Source: Mycoplasma sp. CAG:877 | Lineage (GTDB): Bacteria > Bacillota_I > Bacilli_A > RF39 > UBA660 | Direction of reading: 5' to 3' | Length of the DNA stretch: 64,000 nucleotides | Assembly: GCA_000433455.1 (NCBI GenBank) | Contig: HF992499.1 | Span: 72,475-136,474, forward strand | Part shown: positions 7,601 to 15,717 of the stretch, piece by piece | Layout: each line of letters starts with the position of its first letter | How positions within the stretch are numbered: the first letter of the stretch is position 1 | The notes under the pieces: generated by a model | The model's database searches: none | The model's input: the letters and a program-made list of their open reading frames with translations, nothing else | Told to the model about the DNA's origin: nothing | Program-made: the position numbers and the translations under genes

Positions 7601-8896
7601 ATGAAAAAGAATTTATTACTTATTATTGCAGCATGTGCATTTTTTATTCCTTCAGTAGTATTTGCTAAAGCACCTGAGTATGTTGCAGCAGAAAAATCAC
7701 TTTATGCAAATGGTACTCCAATTACTATTGAAGAAAGAACCGATGGAACGGCTGGAGCACTAATTAAATGGGAAGGTGGCGAAGCCCTTGTAGCTGAAAA
7801 TACTTCAGTTTTTGGTGGCTCTCACAATTCAGATGAGGCTATTGAAAGTGCTTCAATTACAATGAATGGTGGAACAGTAAAGAATGTTATTGGTGGTGGA
7901 CTACACAAGAGTATCGTAAAAAAAGCAACCATAATAATGAACAATGGTACAATTACTGGTAGCCTTATGGGTGGAGGCGCACATCATCTAAAAAGAGCTA
8001 CTGATGGTGATTTTATTGATTCTAATGTTGAAAATGCAAAGGATAGAACAAAAGCCATAACAATAGTAGATGAAACTGAAATAACTATAAATGGTGGAAC
8101 TGTTAAGTATGCAGTATGGGGTGGAGGAGAAAGCTACTCATATACTGGTAAATCAACAGTAACTATTAATAATGTTAAGACTAATTATGCTATAGCAGGT
8201 GGATCTAATGGTTACACTGGTGATGTAACTTTTACAATTAATGGAGGAGAAATTTCTACAGTTCAAGGTGTTAACCGTGGTGAAATGAATACTATAACAA
8301 CAACAATCAATGGGGGAAAAATTAATGCTGTATATGCAGCAGGTGATTCTAGTGATACAGGTGTTGATGGTATAGTTAATGAAAAAGTTAGTTTAAAGGT
8401 TTTTGATGGAGAAATTACTACAATTAGTGCTGGTACATCTGGAGGACCAAACTCATTAGCAACAGCCCTAGTAGAAGCAGAAATCAATGCGAAATTCGAA
8501 GATAAAATTGGTCAAGACTTTAGTGAAGATACTACAGAAGTAACTGTAAACCTAATGTTAATTGCTGGAAATGAAAGAGAAACAATCCAAATTCCAAAAG
8601 GAACAACTTTCACAAAAGAAGAATTACAAGGTTTAATTGATGAAATTAATCAAGAATTAGCAGCAGATAAATTACAATTAGTAGGTTTCTATTTAGATGA
8701 AGAGTTAACTCAAGAATTTGATTTTTCAACTCCAATTGATGCTGATACTGAACTATTCATGAAACTTGCAGAATTAAGAGAAGAAACTGGAGAAAAGAAT
8801 CCAGAAACTTCTGATATTAATTTATTCTTAATCATCTCTTTAGCAGCTCTAGGTACATTAGGTACTGCAGTTGTATTAAAGAATAGACTTTCATAA
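7601..8896 (+). CDS. surface protein with beta-helix-like (I/M)NGG...GGG repeats, a Listeria-Bacteroides (Flg_new)-type repeat and a C-terminal anchor
   Basis: Signal peptide. About 7 repeats such as MNGGTVKNVIGGG / INGGTVKYAVWGGG / INGGKINAVYAAG. LVGFYLDEELTQEFDFSTPIDADTELFMKL resembles the Flg_new repeat. C-terminus is NPETS, then a hydrophobic helix, then KNRLS. Confidence 0.75.
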   Translation: MKKNLLLIIAACAFFIPSVVFAKAPEYVAAEKSLYANGTPITIEERTDGTAGALIKWEGGEALVAENTSVFGGSHNSDEAIESASITMNGGTVKNVIGGGLHKSIVKKATIIMNNGTITGSLMGGGAHHLKRATDGDFIDSNVENAKDRTKAITIVDETEITINGGTVKYAVWGGGESYSYTGKSTVTINNVKTNYAIAGGSNGYTGDVTFTINGGEISTVQGVNRGEMNTITTTINGGKINAVYAAGDSSDTGVDGIVNEKVSLKVFDGEITTISAGTSGGPNSLATALVEAEINAKFEDKIGQDFSEDTTEVTVNLMLIAGNERETIQIPKGTTFTKEELQGLIDEINQELAADKLQLVGFYLDEELTQEFDFSTPIDADTELFMKLAELREETGEKNPETSDINLFLIISLAALGTLGTAVVLKNRLS

Positions 8897-8907
8897 TAAA
8901 AATAATT

Positions 8908-8939
8908 AAGAGGTGCTTCCTAAAGTACTTCTTTTTTTT
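8908..8939 (+). terminator. rho-independent terminator
   Basis: aagaggtgc-(8 nt)-gtacttctt (two G-U pairs) followed by tttttt. Confidence 0.6.
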
Positions 8940-8972
8940 GTTTAAAAAGCATAAATATCTATAGGTGAAATT

Positions 8973-10877
8973 ATGTTTTTTAAAAAGATTGATGAACGTA
9001 TAAAAATAACTTTTTTAGTAATGTTAATTCTCTTTATATTTATAATTTTAAGAGTCTTCTACATCCAAGTATTTGACTATAAAAAATTAAATGAGTATGC
9101 TTCAGACCTATGGAGTAGGGACTTACCAATTGAGGCAAATCGAGGACTCATTCTTGATCGCAATGGAGTAGTCCTAGCCGACAATCTCACTACAACATCT
9201 CTTGTCTTAATACCAAATCAAATTAAAGAAAAAGAAAAGGCAACCGAAGAACTTGCTAAAATATTAAATGTTTCTTATGATGAAATGCAAAAACACGTCT
9301 ATAAAAAAACTTCTATTGAAAGAGTCCACCCAGAAGGTAGAAGACTTTCCTATGATATAGCCGAAAAAATATCCAATCTAAAACTAGACGGAGTTTATCT
9401 AGTTAAAGAAGCAAAAAGATATTACCCTTATGGTAATTTACTATCACATTCATTAGGGTATGTTGGAATAGATAATCAAGGTTTATCAGGTTTAGAATTA
9501 GAGTATGATAAATATCTAACTGGCAAGTCAGGTGCTATTAAATACTTTTCTGATGCTAAAGGTAACAAATTAAATGTTTCGGATGTTTATGTTGAACCCC
9601 AAGATGGTATGAATCTTTATTTAACAATTGATATAAATATTCAAAAGTCTATTGAAAGAGAACTAGATAATATTGTCGATATGTTTTCTCCTGATATGGC
9701 TCTAGCCGTTGTCATGAACCCTAAGACTGGCGAAATCCTAGGTATGGGATCAAGACCAGATTATAATCCCAATACTTATCAAAAGTACTCTCAAGACGTT
9801 CTAAGTAGAAACCTCCCAGTTTGGTCCTCCTATGAACCAGGATCAACTTTCAAAATTATCACTATGGCAACTTCCGTAGAAGAAAAGATTATTGATATCG
9901 AAAATGATCATTTCTATGACTCAGGTAGTGTAAATGTAGATGGTTCAGTCTTAAAATGTTGGAAAGCCGGAGGCCATGGTGATCAAACCTTCCTTCAAGT
10001 ACTCCAAAATTCTTGTAACCCAGGTTTCGTAAAACTGGGTCAAATGCTGGGTAAAGAAAGACTATTTTCCTATATTAAAAAATTTGGCTTTGGAGAAAAA
10101 ACAGGAGTTGATTTAAATGGTGAAGGTCAAGGTATCTTATTTCCTTTAGAAAAAGTAGGTAATGTTGAATTATCAACTACTGCCTTTGGTCAAGGAGTAA
10201 GTGTCACACCTATTCAACAAGTAACCGCCGTATCTGCTGTCGTTAATGGTGGTTATCTCTATAAACCATATATCGTAAAAAGTATTGCTGAAAAAGAAAC
10301 AAATACCATTATCCAAGAAACTTCAAAAACACTAGTTAGAAAAGTAATATCTAGTGAAACTTCTACTATTATGCGTCACGCTCTAGAAAGTGTTGTTGCT
10401 AAAGGAGGAGGAAAAGCCGCCTATATTGAAGGCTATCGTATTGGTGGTAAAACCGGTACCGCCCAAAAAGTAAAAGATGGTAGATACATGGTCGGAAACT
10501 ATATAATGTCTTTTATGTCTATTGTCCCTTCAAATGATCCAGAAGCAGTCTTCTATCTAGCAATTGACAATCCTAAAAATACAGCACTCTTATCAAGTTA
10601 TACAACAACCCCAATCGCCAGAAGAGTTCTACTAGATATAATTGATGCTCTAGATATAAAACCACAAGAAGAGGGTATGGAAAAAGATTTGGAATGGACC
10701 GATAAAATAATGTATCAAGTACCAAATGTCATTGGAAAAAGTGTCAAAGAAGCAAAAAAACTATTATCAAACTTTACAATAGAATATAGCGGTACTGGAG
10801 AAACAGTAATTTCCCAGTCACCTGCTGCCAATACAAAACTAGAAGATAGAGGTACAGTAAGACTTTTATTAGAATAA
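8973..10877 (+). CDS. class B penicillin-binding protein (SpoVD/PBP2B/FtsI-like) with one C-terminal PASTA domain
   Basis: N-terminal TM segment. Transpeptidase motifs STFK, SCN and KTGT. C-terminal PASTA-like VPNVIGKSVKEAKKLL...GTVRLLLE. The single PASTA domain and ~635 aa resemble SpoVD. Confidence 0.9.
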   Translation: MFFKKIDERIKITFLVMLILFIFIILRVFYIQVFDYKKLNEYASDLWSRDLPIEANRGLILDRNGVVLADNLTTTSLVLIPNQIKEKEKATEELAKILNVSYDEMQKHVYKKTSIERVHPEGRRLSYDIAEKISNLKLDGVYLVKEAKRYYPYGNLLSHSLGYVGIDNQGLSGLELEYDKYLTGKSGAIKYFSDAKGNKLNVSDVYVEPQDGMNLYLTIDINIQKSIERELDNIVDMFSPDMALAVVMNPKTGEILGMGSRPDYNPNTYQKYSQDVLSRNLPVWSSYEPGSTFKIITMATSVEEKIIDIENDHFYDSGSVNVDGSVLKCWKAGGHGDQTFLQVLQNSCNPGFVKLGQMLGKERLFSYIKKFGFGEKTGVDLNGEGQGILFPLEKVGNVELSTTAFGQGVSVTPIQQVTAVSAVVNGGYLYKPYIVKSIAEKETNTIIQETSKTLVRKVISSETSTIMRHALESVVAKGGGKAAYIEGYRIGGKTGTAQKVKDGRYMVGNYIMSFMSIVPSNDPEAVFYLAIDNPKNTALLSSYTTTPIARRVLLDIIDALDIKPQEEGMEKDLEWTDKIMYQVPNVIGKSVKEAKKLLSNFTIEYSGTGETVISQSPAANTKLEDRGTVRLLLE

Positions 10878-10918
10878 AACTCTGTGTTATAATACTTGTA
10901 GTTAAAGAGGGTGATACT

Positions 10919-11536
10919 ATGACAGAAATCAAAATAGTAAATAATGATGAAGAATTAAATCAAGTATTTAACTTTTTATCAAAAACAATTTATGATGATA
11001 CTATTCTTCACAAAGAAAAGTATTATCCCATGTCAGAACGACTAGAAGAGATCAAAAGCCAATTAAAAATCGATAAAGACTTTTTAATGTATATTGAAGA
11101 AAACAACCATATAGTAGCGGCTATTACTGGTAAAAACATGGATTTAACAAAGAAAAAAATAACTCTTGGTATTCTAGCTGTATCACCATCAAAAAGAAGA
11201 CTTGGCTATGCAACTAAACTTATAAGGGAGTTTGAAAAAATATCTCTAAAAAAAGGTATAACTCACATAGACTTAGGTTCTAGATATAGAGCCAGTTCTT
11301 TATATGAACATCTAAATTATAAGTATTCTCTAATGGTTCAAATATTTGACTTTGTTAAATTAGAAGATATTAGAAAGGCTAATAAATATAATTTAAAAGA
11401 GATAAGTTCAAATCAAGATTCAGCTTATGGTTATATACTTTATAAAGTACCAAGTATATCTAAAAAATATATTACCTGTTTTGAAAAACAAGTACCTACC
11501 GCTATAGCTCAATATATATTTGAAAAAGATCTATAG
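10919..11536 (+). CDS. GNAT-family N-acetyltransferase (putative)
   Basis: ILAVSPSKRRLGYATKLIREFE matches GNAT motif A (R-x-x-G-x-A). Confidence 0.6.
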   Translation: MTEIKIVNNDEELNQVFNFLSKTIYDDTILHKEKYYPMSERLEEIKSQLKIDKDFLMYIEENNHIVAAITGKNMDLTKKKITLGILAVSPSKRRLGYATKLIREFEKISLKKGITHIDLGSRYRASSLYEHLNYKYSLMVQIFDFVKLEDIRKANKYNLKEISSNQDSAYGYILYKVPSISKKYITCFEKQVPTAIAQYIFEKDL

Positions 11537-11555
11537 AAAGGAAAAATAAAATAAT

Positions 11556-12593
11556 ATGCCACATTATAATGCATATACTAGTTTTAAAACTAAAAAAAGT
11601 ATAAAGAAAAAAGAATTAATAAAAGAAAAACAAAATAAACAAATAAATTTACCCAATGATTTTATTATTGAAGAAAGTAAAAACTATGGAATTGTCCTAG
11701 AAGTAAAATATGAAACCGCCTATGTCTTATATAATGATGAAATCATAAAAACAACTTTAAAAAAAGGAATAAACTTAGTCTGTAACAAAATTATTTTTCC
11801 AGGTGACAAAGTAATCCTAGAAAAAGCTAAAACGTCTTATACTATAACTAATCTGTTAAAAAGAACTTCTATTCTAAGTAGAGTAAAAAAAGATAGTACC
11901 AGACTAAATAATCTTGGAACAACAAAAAATATTGCCTCTAACATTGACTTAGCTGTAATAGTTGCATCTGCTAAAGATCCAGCTCTTCATCCTAAGTTTA
12001 TTGACAGATATCTTTTATTATTAGAAAATAGTAATATACCTACAATTATTTGTCTAAATAAATCTGATTTAAAAACTGAAGAAACAACAAAAATATTAGA
12101 TATTTATCGTAATCTAGGTATAAAAGTAATTGAAACTTCTACTTATACTAATCAAGGTATAACAAATCTAAAAGAAGAACTAAGAGGAAAACAAGCTATC
12201 TTCGTTGGAAACTCTGGAGTAGGTAAATCATCTCTAACAAATGCACTTATGGATACAGAAACTATAAAAACATCTGCCATTAGTTCTAAAAGTAAAAGAG
12301 GCCGTCACACGACAACATCATCAAAATACTATATCTGGGATGAAGATTCTAGTATCATTGATACACCTGGTATTAGAAGCCTAGATGTCTCAAAACTAAA
12401 GTCCTTAGAAGTCCAAAACTATTTTAAAGAGTTTTCAAATATTAAAGAAAAATGCAAATATAAAAATTGTCTTCATTACCAAGAACCAACCGCAGCTTGT
12501 ACCATTAAGCAAGCAGTTGAAAATAATACTATAAATAAAAATAGATATCAAAGTTATTTAAGGATCTTAAAAGATACCTTGAATGATAAATAG
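11556..12593 (+). CDS. rsgA: ribosome small-subunit biogenesis GTPase RsgA (YjeQ)
   Basis: Circularly permuted GTPase: NKSDL ... GNSGVGKSSLTNAL ... DTPGIRS, and a C-terminal zinc knuckle CKYKNCLHYQEPTAAC. Confidence 0.9.
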   Translation: MPHYNAYTSFKTKKSIKKKELIKEKQNKQINLPNDFIIEESKNYGIVLEVKYETAYVLYNDEIIKTTLKKGINLVCNKIIFPGDKVILEKAKTSYTITNLLKRTSILSRVKKDSTRLNNLGTTKNIASNIDLAVIVASAKDPALHPKFIDRYLLLLENSNIPTIICLNKSDLKTEETTKILDIYRNLGIKVIETSTYTNQGITNLKEELRGKQAIFVGNSGVGKSSLTNALMDTETIKTSAISSKSKRGRHTTTSSKYYIWDEDSSIIDTPGIRSLDVSKLKSLEVQNYFKEFSNIKEKCKYKNCLHYQEPTAACTIKQAVENNTINKNRYQSYLRILKDTLNDK

Positions 12594-12606
12594 AGGAGTG
12601 GATAAA

Positions 12607-13011
12607 ATGAAAAGAATGAATTTAATAGTAGTCTTCAGTCAAGACAAAACAAAATTACTAATGTGTGAAAGAACTAAAGAACCATACAAAGGACAGTTAA
12701 ACTTAGTAGGTGGAAAGATTGAAAAGGATGATGACAATCTAAATGAAGCTTATCGCGAACTACAAGAGGAAACTGGTATTACTAAAGATGATATTGATTT
12801 AGTATACTTTATGACTTGTAACTATCATACCCTAAATAAAGGTCTAGAAATTTACTATGGAGTTTTAAATAAAGATGTCGAATTAGTAGAAGAAGTAAAT
12901 AAACTAGTTTGGGTAAATGAAGATGACAACTTCTTTGATTTTAATAAATATGCCGGAGAAGGAAACCTAGGTCATATAATTGCTGAAATAAAACTAGAAC
13001 TATCAAAGTAA
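12607..13011 (+). CDS. NUDIX hydrolase
   Basis: Nudix box GGKIEKDDDNLNEAYRELQEETGI. A GGAG RBS favours the ATG at 12607 over the tracked 12583. Confidence 0.85.
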   Translation: MKRMNLIVVFSQDKTKLLMCERTKEPYKGQLNLVGGKIEKDDDNLNEAYRELQEETGITKDDIDLVYFMTCNYHTLNKGLEIYYGVLNKDVELVEEVNKLVWVNEDDNFFDFNKYAGEGNLGHIIAEIKLELSK

Positions 13012-13060
13012 TTGCAAAAGTCTAAATAATATGTTAAATTATTACTGGAGGAGTGATAAA

Positions 13061-13120
13061 ATGTACAATTTTGCTAATCATGTAATCATGTATACATTAG
13101 ATATCACACCTAACGTCTAA
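13061..13120 (+). CDS. 19-codon leader peptide ORF (MYNFANHVIMYTLDITPNV) upstream of the ABC-F gene
   Basis: GGAGG at 13047-13051 lies 9 nt before the ATG. The 3' end of the ORF is complementary to the downstream attenuator arm. Not in the ORF track because it is under 60 aa. Confidence 0.55.
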   Translation: MYNFANHVIMYTLDITPNV

Positions 13121-13133
13121 ATAAAAAAATAAT

Positions 13134-13213
13134 AGATGTAGGTGTGAAGTTTTCGTCGTGCCTACATCTGTACATGAAAGGACTATACAGATGTATAGTT
13201 CTTTTATTTTTTT
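13134..13213 (+). promoter_or_regulatory. transcription attenuator: mutually exclusive antiterminator and terminator hairpins
   Basis: agatgtagg (13134-42) pairs with cctacatct (13161-69). tacatctgta (13163-72) pairs with tacagatgta (13186-95), followed by tagttcttttattttttt. The two helices share 13163-69. cacacct (13105-11, inside the leader ORF) can pair with aggtgtg (13140-46). Confidence 0.6.
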
Positions 13214-13258
13214 GATTATGGTGCGATTTATAAATACTATAATTAAGGATGTGATTAT

Positions 13259-14860
13259 ATGATAGAAATAGGAATAAATAAAATAACAAAAGACTTTGGT
13301 TTTGGACCAGTCTTAAACGATATAAGTTTTGAAGTAAAAACAAATGAACGTATTGCTTTAATAGGTGATAATGGTTCAGGTAAAACAACTCTTTTAAATA
13401 TAATTTCAGGAATTGAAAAAGAAACATCTGGAACCATCTCTATAAGAAAAAATGCTAAAGTAGGGTACTTACCTCAATTAATTAAAGAAAAAGATGAAAA
13501 CATAACTGTAAAAGATGTTTTATATGACGGTATAAAAGATTTAATTGCTCTACGTGATAAATTAGAAGAGTACGAAGAAAAAATTACTAAATCCGATGAA
13601 TCTACCATCGAAAAATTAATAATTAGATATTCAAATCTTCAGACTGACTTTATCAATATGTCAGGTTATGAAATAGATGCTAAAGTAGAAAAAGTAATTA
13701 AGGGTTTTAAAATAAATAAAGAGCTTCTTCCTCGTAATTTTAATAGCCTATCTGGTGGAGAAAAAACAATCATTACTTTTGCCTCTATTATTATTTCAGA
13801 ACCAGATATTCTACTTTTAGACGAACCAACTAATCACTTGGATATTGATACTTTAGAATGGTTAGAGGAATACTTAAGAAACTATAAAGGAACAATTCTG
13901 ATGATTTCTCACGATAGATACTTTCTCGATGAAGTAGCAACTAAAACTATTCTTTTAGAAAATGCTAAGATAAATATTTTTCATGGTAATTATACAAAAT
14001 TTATTCAAGAAAATGATGCTCGTATCGAAAAAGAATTTAAAGATTACAAAGATCAGCAAAAACAAATAAAAGCCATGGAAGCCTCAATCAAACGCCTAGA
14101 GGAGTATGGTAATCTTGCTAAAAACGAAATGTTTTTTAAACGTGCTGAAAGTATTAGAAAACGTCTAAATAAATTAGAAAGACTAGATAAACCAGTTGAA
14201 AAAGAAAAACTGCCTCTAACATTCTCGTCTAGTCGCTCAGGAAAAGAAGTCTTAAACTTATCTAAGATTAATATTTCATATCCAGACAAAACAATACTAA
14301 AAGATGCCACCTTAAGAATACTTTATCAAGACAAAGTCTGCTTACTAGGACCTAATGGTTCAGGTAAATCTACTCTTGTAAAGTATATCTTACAAAATTC
14401 TACTCATGGTACTAATGTTAAAATTGGTTATATCCCTCAAGAAATAACTTTTGAAAATGACAACAGTACAATAATAGAGGAAGCCAAACACTATTTTATA
14501 GGAGAAGAACATCGTTTAAGAGCTGCTCTAAGTAAATTTTACTTTTTCAAAGATAATGTCTATAAAAGAATAAAAGATTTATCAGGTGGTGAAAAAGTAC
14601 GTTTAAAATTATTTTGTCTAATACAATCTAACATTAATTTTCTAATACTAGATGAACCAACTAACCATATAGATATAGAAACAAAAGAAATATTAGAAAG
14701 TGCTCTAACTGAGTATCAAGGAACTTTATTATTTATATCTCACGATCGTTATTTTATTAATAACCTAGCTTCAAAAATAATATATATAGAAAATAATAAA
14801 TTAAAAGAAATACCTGGTAATTATGAAGACTACAAAAGATATAAAAGAAAGGAAAATTAA
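13259..14860 (+). CDS. ABC-F family ATPase (two NBDs, no TMD), possibly a ribosome-protection/translation factor
   Basis: Two Walker A motifs (GDNGSGKTT, GPNGSGKST), two LSGGE signatures, two LLLDEPTNHLD-type Walker B motifs and a ~68-aa charged inter-domain linker. Confidence 0.9.
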   Translation: MIEIGINKITKDFGFGPVLNDISFEVKTNERIALIGDNGSGKTTLLNIISGIEKETSGTISIRKNAKVGYLPQLIKEKDENITVKDVLYDGIKDLIALRDKLEEYEEKITKSDESTIEKLIIRYSNLQTDFINMSGYEIDAKVEKVIKGFKINKELLPRNFNSLSGGEKTIITFASIIISEPDILLLDEPTNHLDIDTLEWLEEYLRNYKGTILMISHDRYFLDEVATKTILLENAKINIFHGNYTKFIQENDARIEKEFKDYKDQQKQIKAMEASIKRLEEYGNLAKNEMFFKRAESIRKRLNKLERLDKPVEKEKLPLTFSSSRSGKEVLNLSKINISYPDKTILKDATLRILYQDKVCLLGPNGSGKSTLVKYILQNSTHGTNVKIGYIPQEITFENDNSTIIEEAKHYFIGEEHRLRAALSKFYFFKDNVYKRIKDLSGGEKVRLKLFCLIQSNINFLILDEPTNHIDIETKEILESALTEYQGTLLFISHDRYFINNLASKIIYIENNKLKEIPGNYEDYKRYKRKEN

Positions 14861-14861
14861 T

Positions 14862-15374
14862 ATGAAAGAAATAATTTATAATACTGATAATTTAAAAGAA
14901 AGTGAAATGACAAGAACTGTTACTAGAGCTAAAGTAATCTTAGTAAATTCAAAAGATGAAATCTTACTAGCTAATGGTTCAAATACTTATTTTTTAATAG
15001 GTGGACATGTTGAAGATAATGAATCTCTAGAAGACTGTCTAATAAGAGAAGTAAAAGAAGAAACAGGAATCAACCTACCAAGAGAAGAAAGAATACCTGT
15101 ACTTAATATTAAATATTTATGTAAAGATTATCCAACATCTGGAGAAAACACTTTATACATTGCTACATATTTTTATACTAAGTGTGATTTAAAACCAGAC
15201 TTAAGTTCCATAAATTTAACTGAAGATGAAAAAAAGGGTGGCTTCCATCTAGAATATATTCCTAAAAAAGATATCATCAAAACTCTAGAAGATTGCCTAC
15301 CAGTATGTACTAATGAAAAGATTGTTATTGACACTCTAGAAGCTATTAAAGAATACTTAAAAATGACTGCATAG
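14862..15374 (+). CDS. NUDIX hydrolase
   Basis: Nudix box GGHVEDNESLEDCLIREVKEETGI. The ATG at 14862 lies just after the ABC-F stop and follows AAGGAA. Confidence 0.8.
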   Translation: MKEIIYNTDNLKESEMTRTVTRAKVILVNSKDEILLANGSNTYFLIGGHVEDNESLEDCLIREVKEETGINLPREERIPVLNIKYLCKDYPTSGENTLYIATYFYTKCDLKPDLSSINLTEDEKKGGFHLEYIPKKDIIKTLEDCLPVCTNEKIVIDTLEAIKEYLKMTA

Positions 15375-15423
15375 CTTGTAAAATATAAAAGACTTAAGTA
15401 TAATTTATACAAGGAATGATTAT

Positions 15424-15624
15424 ATGAAAACAAAAATAATACTTCAATTACTATCTATTATTTCTATGGTAATAGGCTTATTCTTCTTTTATACTTATCA
15501 AAGGTTAGAAAAGAAAGAACAATTATCAAACCAAAAAAGGATATATCAAAAGAAAGAAACAATCTGCTTTTACTTAGGCATAATACTTGAAGTAATTGGT
15601 CTAACATTACTAATGTTTATTTAA
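15424..15624 (+). CDS. small two-TM membrane protein, hypothetical
   Basis: Two hydrophobic helices flank a basic loop. RBS present, terminator hairpin downstream. No family recognised. Confidence 0.45.
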   Translation: MKTKIILQLLSIISMVIGLFFFYTYQRLEKKEQLSNQKRIYQKKETICFYLGIILEVIGLTLLMFI

Positions 15625-15717
15625 AGAGTATTTGTAAAGATACTCTTTTCTCATGAATTTAAAAAACTAATTATATTAACTTTAAAAAAAATATGATAAA
15701 CTAATTATGGTGATACT

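Follow-up and report, generated by a model that had tools for sequence, protein, structure and literature searches.

What decides whether RNA polymerase stops ahead of the ABC-F ATPase gene of Mycoplasma sp. CAG:877 or reads on into it? The gene lies in a 64,000-nucleotide (nt) stretch of contig HF992499.1 (positions 72,475 to 136,474, hereafter the window), an AT-rich piece of a 1.41 Mb assembly of 29 contigs from an uncultured gut 'Bacilli bacterium'. Upstream of the leader discussed here a Nudix gene ends at 13011, and the ABC-F gene starts at 13259. For the interval between them a preliminary description had proposed a short leader open reading frame (ORF) followed by three overlapping RNA pairings, the last of them a terminator, and had read the whole as the leader-peptide attenuator of an antibiotic-inducible ribosome-protection gene. 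We found that the observation is real and that its interpretation names the right kind of element but wires it wrongly. This element is, with a probability that we place near 0.65, a ribosome-sensing transcription attenuator controlling an accessory ABC-F gene; the pairing taken for the terminator is its antiterminator, and the site at which the ribosome is sensed lies in the middle of the leader and not at its end.

The building blocks were correctly located. The 19-codon leader ORF and its GGAGG, 9 nt 5' of the ATG at 13061, are both present, and the three pairings are exact complements: (a) joins 13105-11 to 13140-46, (b) joins 13134-42 to 13161-69 and (c) joins 13163-72 to 13186-95. We named the strands segments 0 to 4' (coordinates in Table 1), (a) being helix 1:2 in its extended form, (b) helix 2:3 and (c) helix 3:4'. 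The leader region from 13040 to 13262 folds at -66.4 kcal/mol against -40.1 ± 4.0 kcal/mol for shuffled sequences (z = -6.6), and none of 200 shuffles was as good. The scan for terminators returned a single site, identical with a hairpin of the minimum-energy fold (13174-13188/13193-13207), whose stem is directly followed by the U-tract UUUUUUGA. Pairing (c) overlaps the apex of this hairpin, taking up its loop together with 3 nt from either arm, so that only one of the two structures can exist at a time; by geometric reasoning, a pseudoknot uniting them would have to bridge stems of 10 and 12 bp with connecting loops of just 1, 0 and 0 nt. In the window (c) ends at least 6 nt before the U-run, and in the homologues described below the U-run comes immediately after the second hairpin, 6-17 nt past the GATG core of (c). 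Being exclusive with the terminator, and with the homologue U-run directly following the second hairpin, (c) is an antiterminator and not a terminator, and the logic of the preliminary description is therefore inverted. The homologue terminators have a median stem of 12 bp, a median energy of -12.5 kcal/mol and a median of 7 U in the next 9 nt. A terminator with a U-tract between the upstream ORF (uORF) and the ABC-F gene, as expected of an attenuator, was thus found in the window and in its homologues alike.

Relatives of the leader were gathered by protein-based locus retrieval, by a DNA-pattern search of 401 same-family genomes and by one metagenome scan. They amount to 87 leader-bearing loci, which correspond to 55 distinct leaders and 43 distinct peptides of 11-24 codons, and the same ABC-F gene lies directly downstream in every leader match with a readable downstream gene. 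The DNA pattern occurred once per genome in 12 of the 401 family genomes and the reversed control pattern gave no match. The general idea of a ribosome-sensing leader-peptide attenuator before the ABC-F gene held up well in this collection, being conserved in the 55 distinct leaders. An Rfam scan of 12000-15500 at a permissive threshold gave no match in the leader, and elsewhere in that interval just chance matches with E > 1.

Folding and covariation of the homologous leaders, the check suggested by the preliminary description, gave a clear answer, with compensatory changes in the hairpins. Unguided consensus folding of a 42-sequence MAFFT alignment with RNAalifold returned exactly helices 1:2 and 3:4'. 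The cells of these two helices were 96.3% paired, compared with 17-51% when the partner column was slid, and their covariation score was equalled by none of 500 shuffles. Compensatory pairs were seen at columns 69:123 of helix 1:2 (CG 22, UA 19), at columns 74:118 (GC 22, AU 9) and at columns 149:173 (CG 18, UA 14, UG 7), and the 3:4' pairing is retained through CG/UA and GC/AU swaps. In helix 2:3 a core of 8 bp is paired in every one of the 42 sequences, and one pair (118:144) is compensatory. A single variable position links the four segments: columns 74, 118, 144 and 182 of alignment A1, which fall in segments 1, 2, 3 and 4', hold G/A, C/U, G/A and U/C, respectively, and these change in step, as predicted by a relay of alternating helices running from segment 1 through 2 and 3 to 4'.

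Segment 0 can also pair with segment 1 (13049-51 with 13109-11 and 13053-58 with 13102-07), and the register of this 0:1 pairing varies between subgroups of homologues. For that reason a column-wise covariation count was dropped for this helix, and we used an energy test by permutation, in which cognate and non-cognate duplexes were compared in 48 non-redundant leaders. Cognate duplexes were more stable for helix 0:1 (-12.0 versus -10.0 kcal/mol), helix 1:2 (-22.0 versus -15.4), helix 2:3 (-13.9 versus -13.1), helix 3:4' (-13.5 versus -10.9) and the terminator arms (-12.8 versus -4.4), the last with strong covariation. The permutation gave p < 0.0005 for every adjacent pair of segments, p-values that overstate independence since the sequences are related, and for most non-adjacent control pairs cognate and non-cognate energies did not differ.

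The leader peptides of the homologues share just the core [V/T]-I-[M/G]-[Y/F]. Among 46 distinct ORFs, position -1 of the core is Val in 28 (GTA 22, GTC 3, GTT 3), Thr in 14, Asn in 3 and Lys in 1; position 0 is Ile in 45 (ATC 41, ATT 4); position +1 is Met in 41 and Gly in 5; and position +2 is Tyr in 38 and Phe in 8, the core being kept despite synonymous codon variation. The Ile is codon 9 in 42 of the 55 leaders, and the first base of its codon lies 18-21 nt 5' of the segment 1 core (TCAYRCC) in all 53 leaders in which the distance was measurable. The stop codon, by comparison, ranges from -29 to +4 relative to segment 1 (29 nt after to 4 nt before), a spread of 33 nt. Because the Ile spacing is fixed and the stop codon is mobile, the RNA switch is positioned relative to the peptide core and not to the leader end, where the preliminary description had located the sensing.

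The effect of ribosome position was then followed by folding, with the ribosome represented by its footprint; a toeprint lies 16 nt from the first P-site nucleotide (PMC13410324). RNA starting at 13102, the case in which codon 9 or 10 occupies the ribosomal P site, forms 1:2, and at transcript end 13197 its minimum-energy structure is 1:2 + 3:4'. RNA starting at 13132, corresponding to a ribosome at the stop codon, forms 2:3 and then the terminator. A ribosome at the leader end is thus predicted to favour termination, the reverse of the read-through proposed for a stall there. The ribosome-free transcript has as its lowest-energy structure 0:1 at end 13130, 1:2 at 13150, 0:1 + 2:3 at 13175, 1:2 + 3:4' at 13197 and 0:1 + 2:3 + terminator at full length. 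An antiterminator tied to ribosome position, also expected of an attenuator, is found computationally in these footprint folds and in the covariation of 3:4'.

From the sequence elements, their conservation and covariation, the conserved spacing and the energetics, we infer an arrest, its trigger and an order of events in time in which mutually exclusive helices would relay the signal: 1:2 (a), 2:3 (b), the antiterminator 3:4' (c) and the terminator 4:5 (13174-13207 and the U-tract). When a ribosome translates to the leader end it would cover or melt segment 1; segment 2 would take segment 3, 4' would be left free, the terminator would form and transcription would halt before the ABC-F gene. 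A ribosome at the stop codon would cover segment 1 for all three stop-codon placements seen among the homologues and, after it departs, segment 0 with the leader Shine-Dalgarno and start region might, as a conjecture, latch segment 1. When the ribosome is arrested with the core Ile or Met codon in the P site, its leading edge (about +16 nt) would lie just short of segment 1, so 1:2 would persist and segment 3 would stay free to capture 4' as it emerges; the terminator could then not nucleate and the polymerase would read into the ABC-F gene. The nearly invariant U-rich linker AGUUUUCGUC after segment 2 is possibly an RNA polymerase pause site and might, again as a conjecture, give the ribosome time to catch up; the TTNTTT NusG pause motif is present inconsistently, and the conserved linker has just 4-5 U. 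The arrest would most likely be triggered by a ribosome-targeting drug, possibly one that binds in the exit tunnel, the main alternative being failed rescue by the ABC-F itself.

The ABC-F protein has the 533 residues given in the preliminary description. It presents Walker A, signature, Walker B and H-loop in both halves, an inter-domain linker and no membrane domain, as is general for ABC-F proteins, and it is collinear with the EttA and YbiT structures. Walker A1 and the signature are 128 residues apart, the arm insertion being present, and H-loop 1 is separated from Walker A2 by 147 residues, close to the 151 of PoxtA; the corresponding distance in Vga, Msr and Lsa, which have no arm, is 167-176. 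Among solved structures, the nearest relatives lie at much the same distance (YbiT 266, EttA 260, VmlR 246 and PoxtA 243 bits). No named antibiotic resistance (ARE) model of NCBIfam reached its curated cut-off with this protein (score/cut-off: Vga 344/725, Sal 308/725, CplR 294/780, producer type 288/800, OptrA 285/1450, Msr 276/680, Lsa 235/750), and neither did any housekeeping model (EttA 362/599, Uup 341/900, YbiT 345/762, YheS 270/917). The model NF000355, 'ribosomal protection-like ABC-F', was exceeded (447.8 bits against a cut-off of 380), but we dropped it as evidence of resistance because Bacillus YdiF-like and YfmM-like proteins and 6 of 14 control genomes pass it too, so that the match does not discriminate.

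A maximum-likelihood tree placed the protein in a clade with 98% support by the Shimodaira-Hasegawa-like approximate likelihood ratio test (SH-aLRT), together with leaderless same-family orthologues, a group from Clostridia assemblies and a 626-aa protein of Bacillus sp. N5-665. This clade stands apart from the YbiT, Uup/EttA, YdiF-like/OptrA, YfmM-like/PoxtA and Vga/Msr/Lsa groups, and the window protein is separate from VgaA, MsrA, MsrE, LsaE, OptrA and PoxtA. The placement proposed as a check therefore puts the protein outside the housekeeping groups and also in none of the named ARE families. The only other ABC-F of the genome is YbiT-like.

The clade is patchily distributed. Within the order it occurs in 26 of 201 genomes and in 19 of 98 genera, within the genus in 3 of 5 other genomes sampled and, across the class at E ≤ 1e-125, in 34 of 399 genomes; a YdiF-like paralogue reaches the same E ≤ 1e-125 in 76 of 300 genomes, and a comparison of tables found the two proteins at different loci in 13 genomes. 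With a penicillin-binding protein (PBP) gene as the synteny anchor, two same-genus genomes (G013 and G061) have an empty site, the PBP gene directly adjoining the coiled-coil gene upstream of mraY, and a third (G068) has leader, ABC-F and Nudix inserted between the PBP and coiled-coil genes. At the same site the window carries a block of about 4.8 kb (10900-15700) with GNAT, RsgA-like GTPase, Nudix, leader, ABC-F, Nudix and a 66-aa membrane protein. Murina et al. 2019 used variable presence within a genus as a criterion for predicting new AREs (PMC6723617), and the ABC-F clade has this distribution, which is an indicator and not a proof.

Orthologues of the sister groups are preceded by leaders of other kinds. 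Those of the Clostridia assemblies (47-52% identical; L013-L019, L021) have, about 200 nt upstream of the ABC-F start, an unrelated but conserved 24-codon uORF (for example MDNKQILNSRLKIRAYGCKTIATR and MNKKQDLESRLKKRTYAYKLLQVR, each followed by a stop codon) with a double +x+ motif, [R/K]-x-K-x-R; +x+ is a macrolide arrest motif (PMC10314930). In this group a hairpin pairs UAUAUCUC with the ABC-F Shine-Dalgarno GGAGAUAUA and masks the ribosome-binding site, and no U-tract terminator is visible in these leaders, an arrangement which, judged from sequence, looks like translational attenuation of the erm type. The closest homologue from the plasmid collection, that of Bacillus sp. N5-665 (NZ_CP093325.1; L207 340-600), has 626 aa with a C-terminal extension and is 42% identical by tblastn and 44% by the genome search; before it lie a 44-codon uORF (MKRSLAARAKFLDYIYFCRAIF...) and a strong terminator (AAAACCAUGGG...CCCAUGGUUUUUU). 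This uORF holds UUUUGUCGUGC, which resembles the linker and segment 3 of the window. That a single ABC-F clade has taken up three different uORFs agrees with what is seen for resistance ABC-Fs, and would also fit a self-regulating rescue factor.

A role of the ABC-F in antibiotic resistance is plausible from these comparisons, and the original reading of an antibiotic-inducible ribosome-protection gene is plausibly compatible with the patchy, accessory character of the gene and with the sister-clade uORFs, one of which has +x+. One may go further and suppose that the [V/T]-I-M-[Y/F] leader represents a new class of drug-dependent arrest, and that the ABC-F clade is an unrecognised target-protection resistance subfamily, patchy in uncultured gut Firmicutes and some Bacilli, with at least three unrelated recruited leaders (IMY, the 24-codon K-x-R and the 44-codon Bacillus uORF); this is a tentative proposal, to which we give clearly less than even odds.

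Several observations weigh against the attenuator as drawn here. For 13102-13215 the ON state has an energy of -28.9 kcal/mol, compared with -34.8 for 1:2 + terminator and -31.6 for 2:3 + terminator. With this gap of about 6 kcal/mol in favour of the terminator (-34.8 versus -28.9), read-through needs an antiterminator that forms early and persists by kinetic trapping. Dependence on an antiterminator that forms first is usual for attenuators. Helix 1:2 is expected even without any ribosome, so a basal OFF state requires that transcription and translation be tightly coupled or that the polymerase pause. The ATCATGTAT nucleotides are conserved too, and an RNA-level role for the 'peptide' core is therefore possible. 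Finally, the IMY core had no match among the published arrest motifs found, and many ABC-F orthologues (50-56% identical) have no such leader.

Other explanations have to be weighed against the same data. That small ORFs and weak hairpins arise easily in AT-rich DNA is true, but the z score given above and the conservation of the elements, with covariation, across genera and metagenomes refute an origin by chance, which we regard as negligible. The original wiring, in which a stall at the leader end blocks (a), allows (b) and prevents (c) as the terminator to give read-through, is right in that the three pairings exist and compete in the stated order, and it could point to a U-rich stretch (UAGUUCUUUU) starting 1 nt past (c). 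It is nevertheless very improbable, since the canonical terminator is the next hairpin after (c), the homologue U-run lies as far past (c) as described above, the stop codon shifts by 33 nt relative to the hairpins while the mid-leader core stays fixed, and preventing (c) frees the true terminator.

The remaining explanations keep the switch and change what it senses. In one of them no antibiotic is involved: the IMY core would be intrinsically hard to translate and its stall resolved by the ABC-F, and the leader would act as a homeostatic sensor, little ABC-F giving stall and read-through and enough of it termination. We consider this unlikely, though it is the main alternative. Non-ARE ABC-Fs are known to relieve sequence-specific stalls (PMC11381351, PMC11162784), MsrD exerts negative feedback on its own leader (PMC10314930), the window protein has an EttA/PoxtA-like architecture and not the long-linker ARE1-3 type, and the genome has just one other ABC-F. 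Such self-regulation fits less well with an accessory gene, found in 26 of the 201 genomes of the order and missing from the same site in two same-genus genomes, with sister clades that have unrelated leaders, one with a macrolide-type +x+, and with the many orthologues that lack any leader. The same switch might also act as a general sensor of translation capacity, turned ON by any delay of the pioneer ribosome (drugs, starvation, few ribosomes) whatever the peptide sequence. By folding, the absence of a ribosome from segment 1 does suffice for 1:2 + 3:4', and the topAI uORF is known to sense many drug classes (PMC12121999); since a general sensor leaves unexplained both the amino-acid conservation of [V/T]-I-[M/G]-[Y/F] and the fixed 18-21 nt spacing to segment 1, we judge it improbable, and more so than self-regulation by the ABC-F. 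The ribosome-sensing attenuator with an arrest at the mid-leader core is the reading that we retain.

How does such an attenuator compare with known systems? In the E. coli trp leader, the position of the pioneer ribosome on the leader ORF picks between alternative hairpins and an intrinsic terminator. As in trp, the 1:2 hairpin and the U-rich stretch could act as a synchronising pause; the window differs by an extra inverting helix, so that a ribosome held before segment 1 would give read-through, by having no regulatory codon run and by regulating a translation factor and not a biosynthetic operon. ErmCL has Val-Ile at codons 8-9, and the window leader shares with ermC its 19 codons, this hydrophobic Val-Ile at codons 8-9 and a chain of alternative hairpins, but no sequence homology between ErmCL and the window leader was shown. 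The control of ermC is translational, the stalled ribosome melting segment 1 and the Shine-Dalgarno being unmasked, whereas that of the window would be transcriptional, with segment 1 staying paired. ErmCL is arrested with Ile9 in the P site (PMC5499644).

Among ARE ABC-F genes, uORF-dependent attenuation is known for vmlR, vgaA, lmo0919, cplR and msrD. The msrD leader MsrDL (MYLIFM) of Streptococcus is similar to the system proposed for the window in that a uORF encodes a short hydrophobic arrest peptide, the ABC-F gene is preceded by a Rho-independent terminator and stalling gives read-through, but it has 6 codons and stalls at the stop codon, where the ribosome itself is a direct obstacle to the terminator (PMC10314930). 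The window leader and its homologues have 11-24 codons, a mid-leader site about 19 nt before the first helix and two intermediate helices (1:2 and 3:4'), and the peptide cores are unrelated in sequence. The cplR, vmlR, vgaL/lmo0919 and lsaA systems (bioRxiv 10.1101/2022.12.05.519065; PMC9226507) also combine a chromosomal ABC-F of Firmicutes with a uORF, an antiterminator and terminator and a U-tract near the Shine-Dalgarno of the gene; their leaders (MRI, MIN, MK[L/Q], MAGN) are 3-4 codons long and respond to drugs that arrest the ribosome at initiation or shortly after it, whereas the window has a long leader with a conserved internal motif, and its ABC-F is not ARE1, ARE2 or ARE3. PoxtA and OptrA (ARE8 and ARE7) and EttA-type proteins share the arm insertion and 32-35% identity over 95-96% of the length, but the window protein falls outside their tree groups and far below the cut-offs of their hidden Markov models. 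With respect to the known uORF attenuators of ABC-F genes, the conserved peptide core and the extra inverting helix are new.

If the proposed model is true, it would provide a new conserved arrest-peptide motif of defined geometry, with a ribosome that halts short of a hairpin instead of melting it, a natural multi-step relay of alternating helices in which a single variable base pair travels through the four segments, and, from bacteria that are abundant in the human gut but uncultured, a candidate factor for resistance or for ribosome rescue. As leader peptides are tuned to the drugs that they detect, the IMY and K-x-R leaders would offer a direct handle on the inducers of the ABC-F clade. 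Should the ABC-F turn out to be a housekeeping rescue factor that regulates itself, the leader would tell which sequence is its natural substrate.

Table 1. Positions of the leader elements and neighbouring genes in the window.
Feature	Position	Strand	Basis or detail
Putative sigma-A promoter	13012..13040	+	TTGCAA 13012-17, 17-nt spacer, TGnTAAATT extended -10 13032-40; by inference only
Segment 0: leader Shine-Dalgarno GGAGG (13047-13051) and spacer	13047..13058	+	minimum-energy fold
Leader ORF, 19 codons, MYNFANHVIMYTLDITPNV and stop	13061..13120	+	ORF translation; homologous uORFs
Peptide core V8-I9-M10-Y11, proposed ribosome arrest site	13082..13093	+	conservation among homologous leaders
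Segment 1: 3' end of leader ORF; partner segment 2 (pairing (a), extended)	13104..13119	+	
Segment 2; alternative partners segment 1 or segment 3	13132..13147	+	
U-rich linker between segments 2 and 3, nearly invariant	13148..13157	+	alignment A1 columns
Segment 3, GUGCCUACAUCUGUA; pairs with segment 2 (b) or segment 4' (c)	13156..13172	+	
Intrinsic terminator, AGAU loop	13174..13215	+	15-bp stem 13174-88 with 13193-207; U-tract 13208-15
Segment 4'; with 13163-72 makes the antiterminator	13186..13195	+	exact 10-bp complement
Extra hairpin, partly covering the ABC-F Shine-Dalgarno (AAGG)	13210..13248	+	13210-23 with 13235-48
ABC-F ATPase, 533 aa; two complete nucleotide-binding domains, arm insertion, medium-length linker	13259..14860	+	
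Nudix hydrolase gene	14823..15374	+	overlaps the ABC-F 3' end by 38 nt (14823-14860); also after ABC-F in G068

Some features of the flanks deserve mention. The predicted transcript start is at about 13047. The putative promoter upstream of it has a similar layout, TTGCAA...TG.TAATAT, judged by eye, in three homologues (L006-L008); it matches 8 of 12 positions where the promoter scan required 9 and, because the scan left it out, we keep it as putative. Downstream of the terminator, the extra hairpin sits in an insertion of about 30 nt (~13216-13244) found only in the window and its closest relatives (L003-L005), most homologues being without it; within the insertion lies a perfect TATAAT (13238-43), and 20 nt upstream of that motif is TTGATT, a poor -35. 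A long-range pairing of codons 6-11 with the ABC-F start (13078-91 with 13249-62) was rejected, since by eye it is not kept in L006-type homologues.

Concerning the neighbourhood, the insertion site is a variable spot within a cell-division and cell-wall gene cluster. The RsgA-like GTPase gene (11556-12593) had no match at E ≤ 1e-40 in five same-genus genomes and was useless as a synteny anchor; it may be an accessory ribosome-associated gene travelling near the ABC-F gene. The ABC-F and downstream Nudix genes may form an operon, and in G068 the Nudix gene that follows the ABC-F gene lies at L228 2018-2530. An IMG/VR contig classed as viral (IMGVR_UViG_3300045988_183079; L225) carries an MYKYVGNVIMF-type leader and ABC-F at ~8180-10000 of the reverse-complemented locus, with a P-type ATPase-sized ORF among its neighbours, and may be mis-binned or an island. 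Lastly, many database entries for the ABC-F (P0008-P0052; L088 and similar loci) have 561 aa instead of 538 aa; they begin at an in-frame start within the terminator region, the source of the extra residues (MQYIHITFFDGRNIM...), and this looks like a gene-calling artefact caused by the leader.

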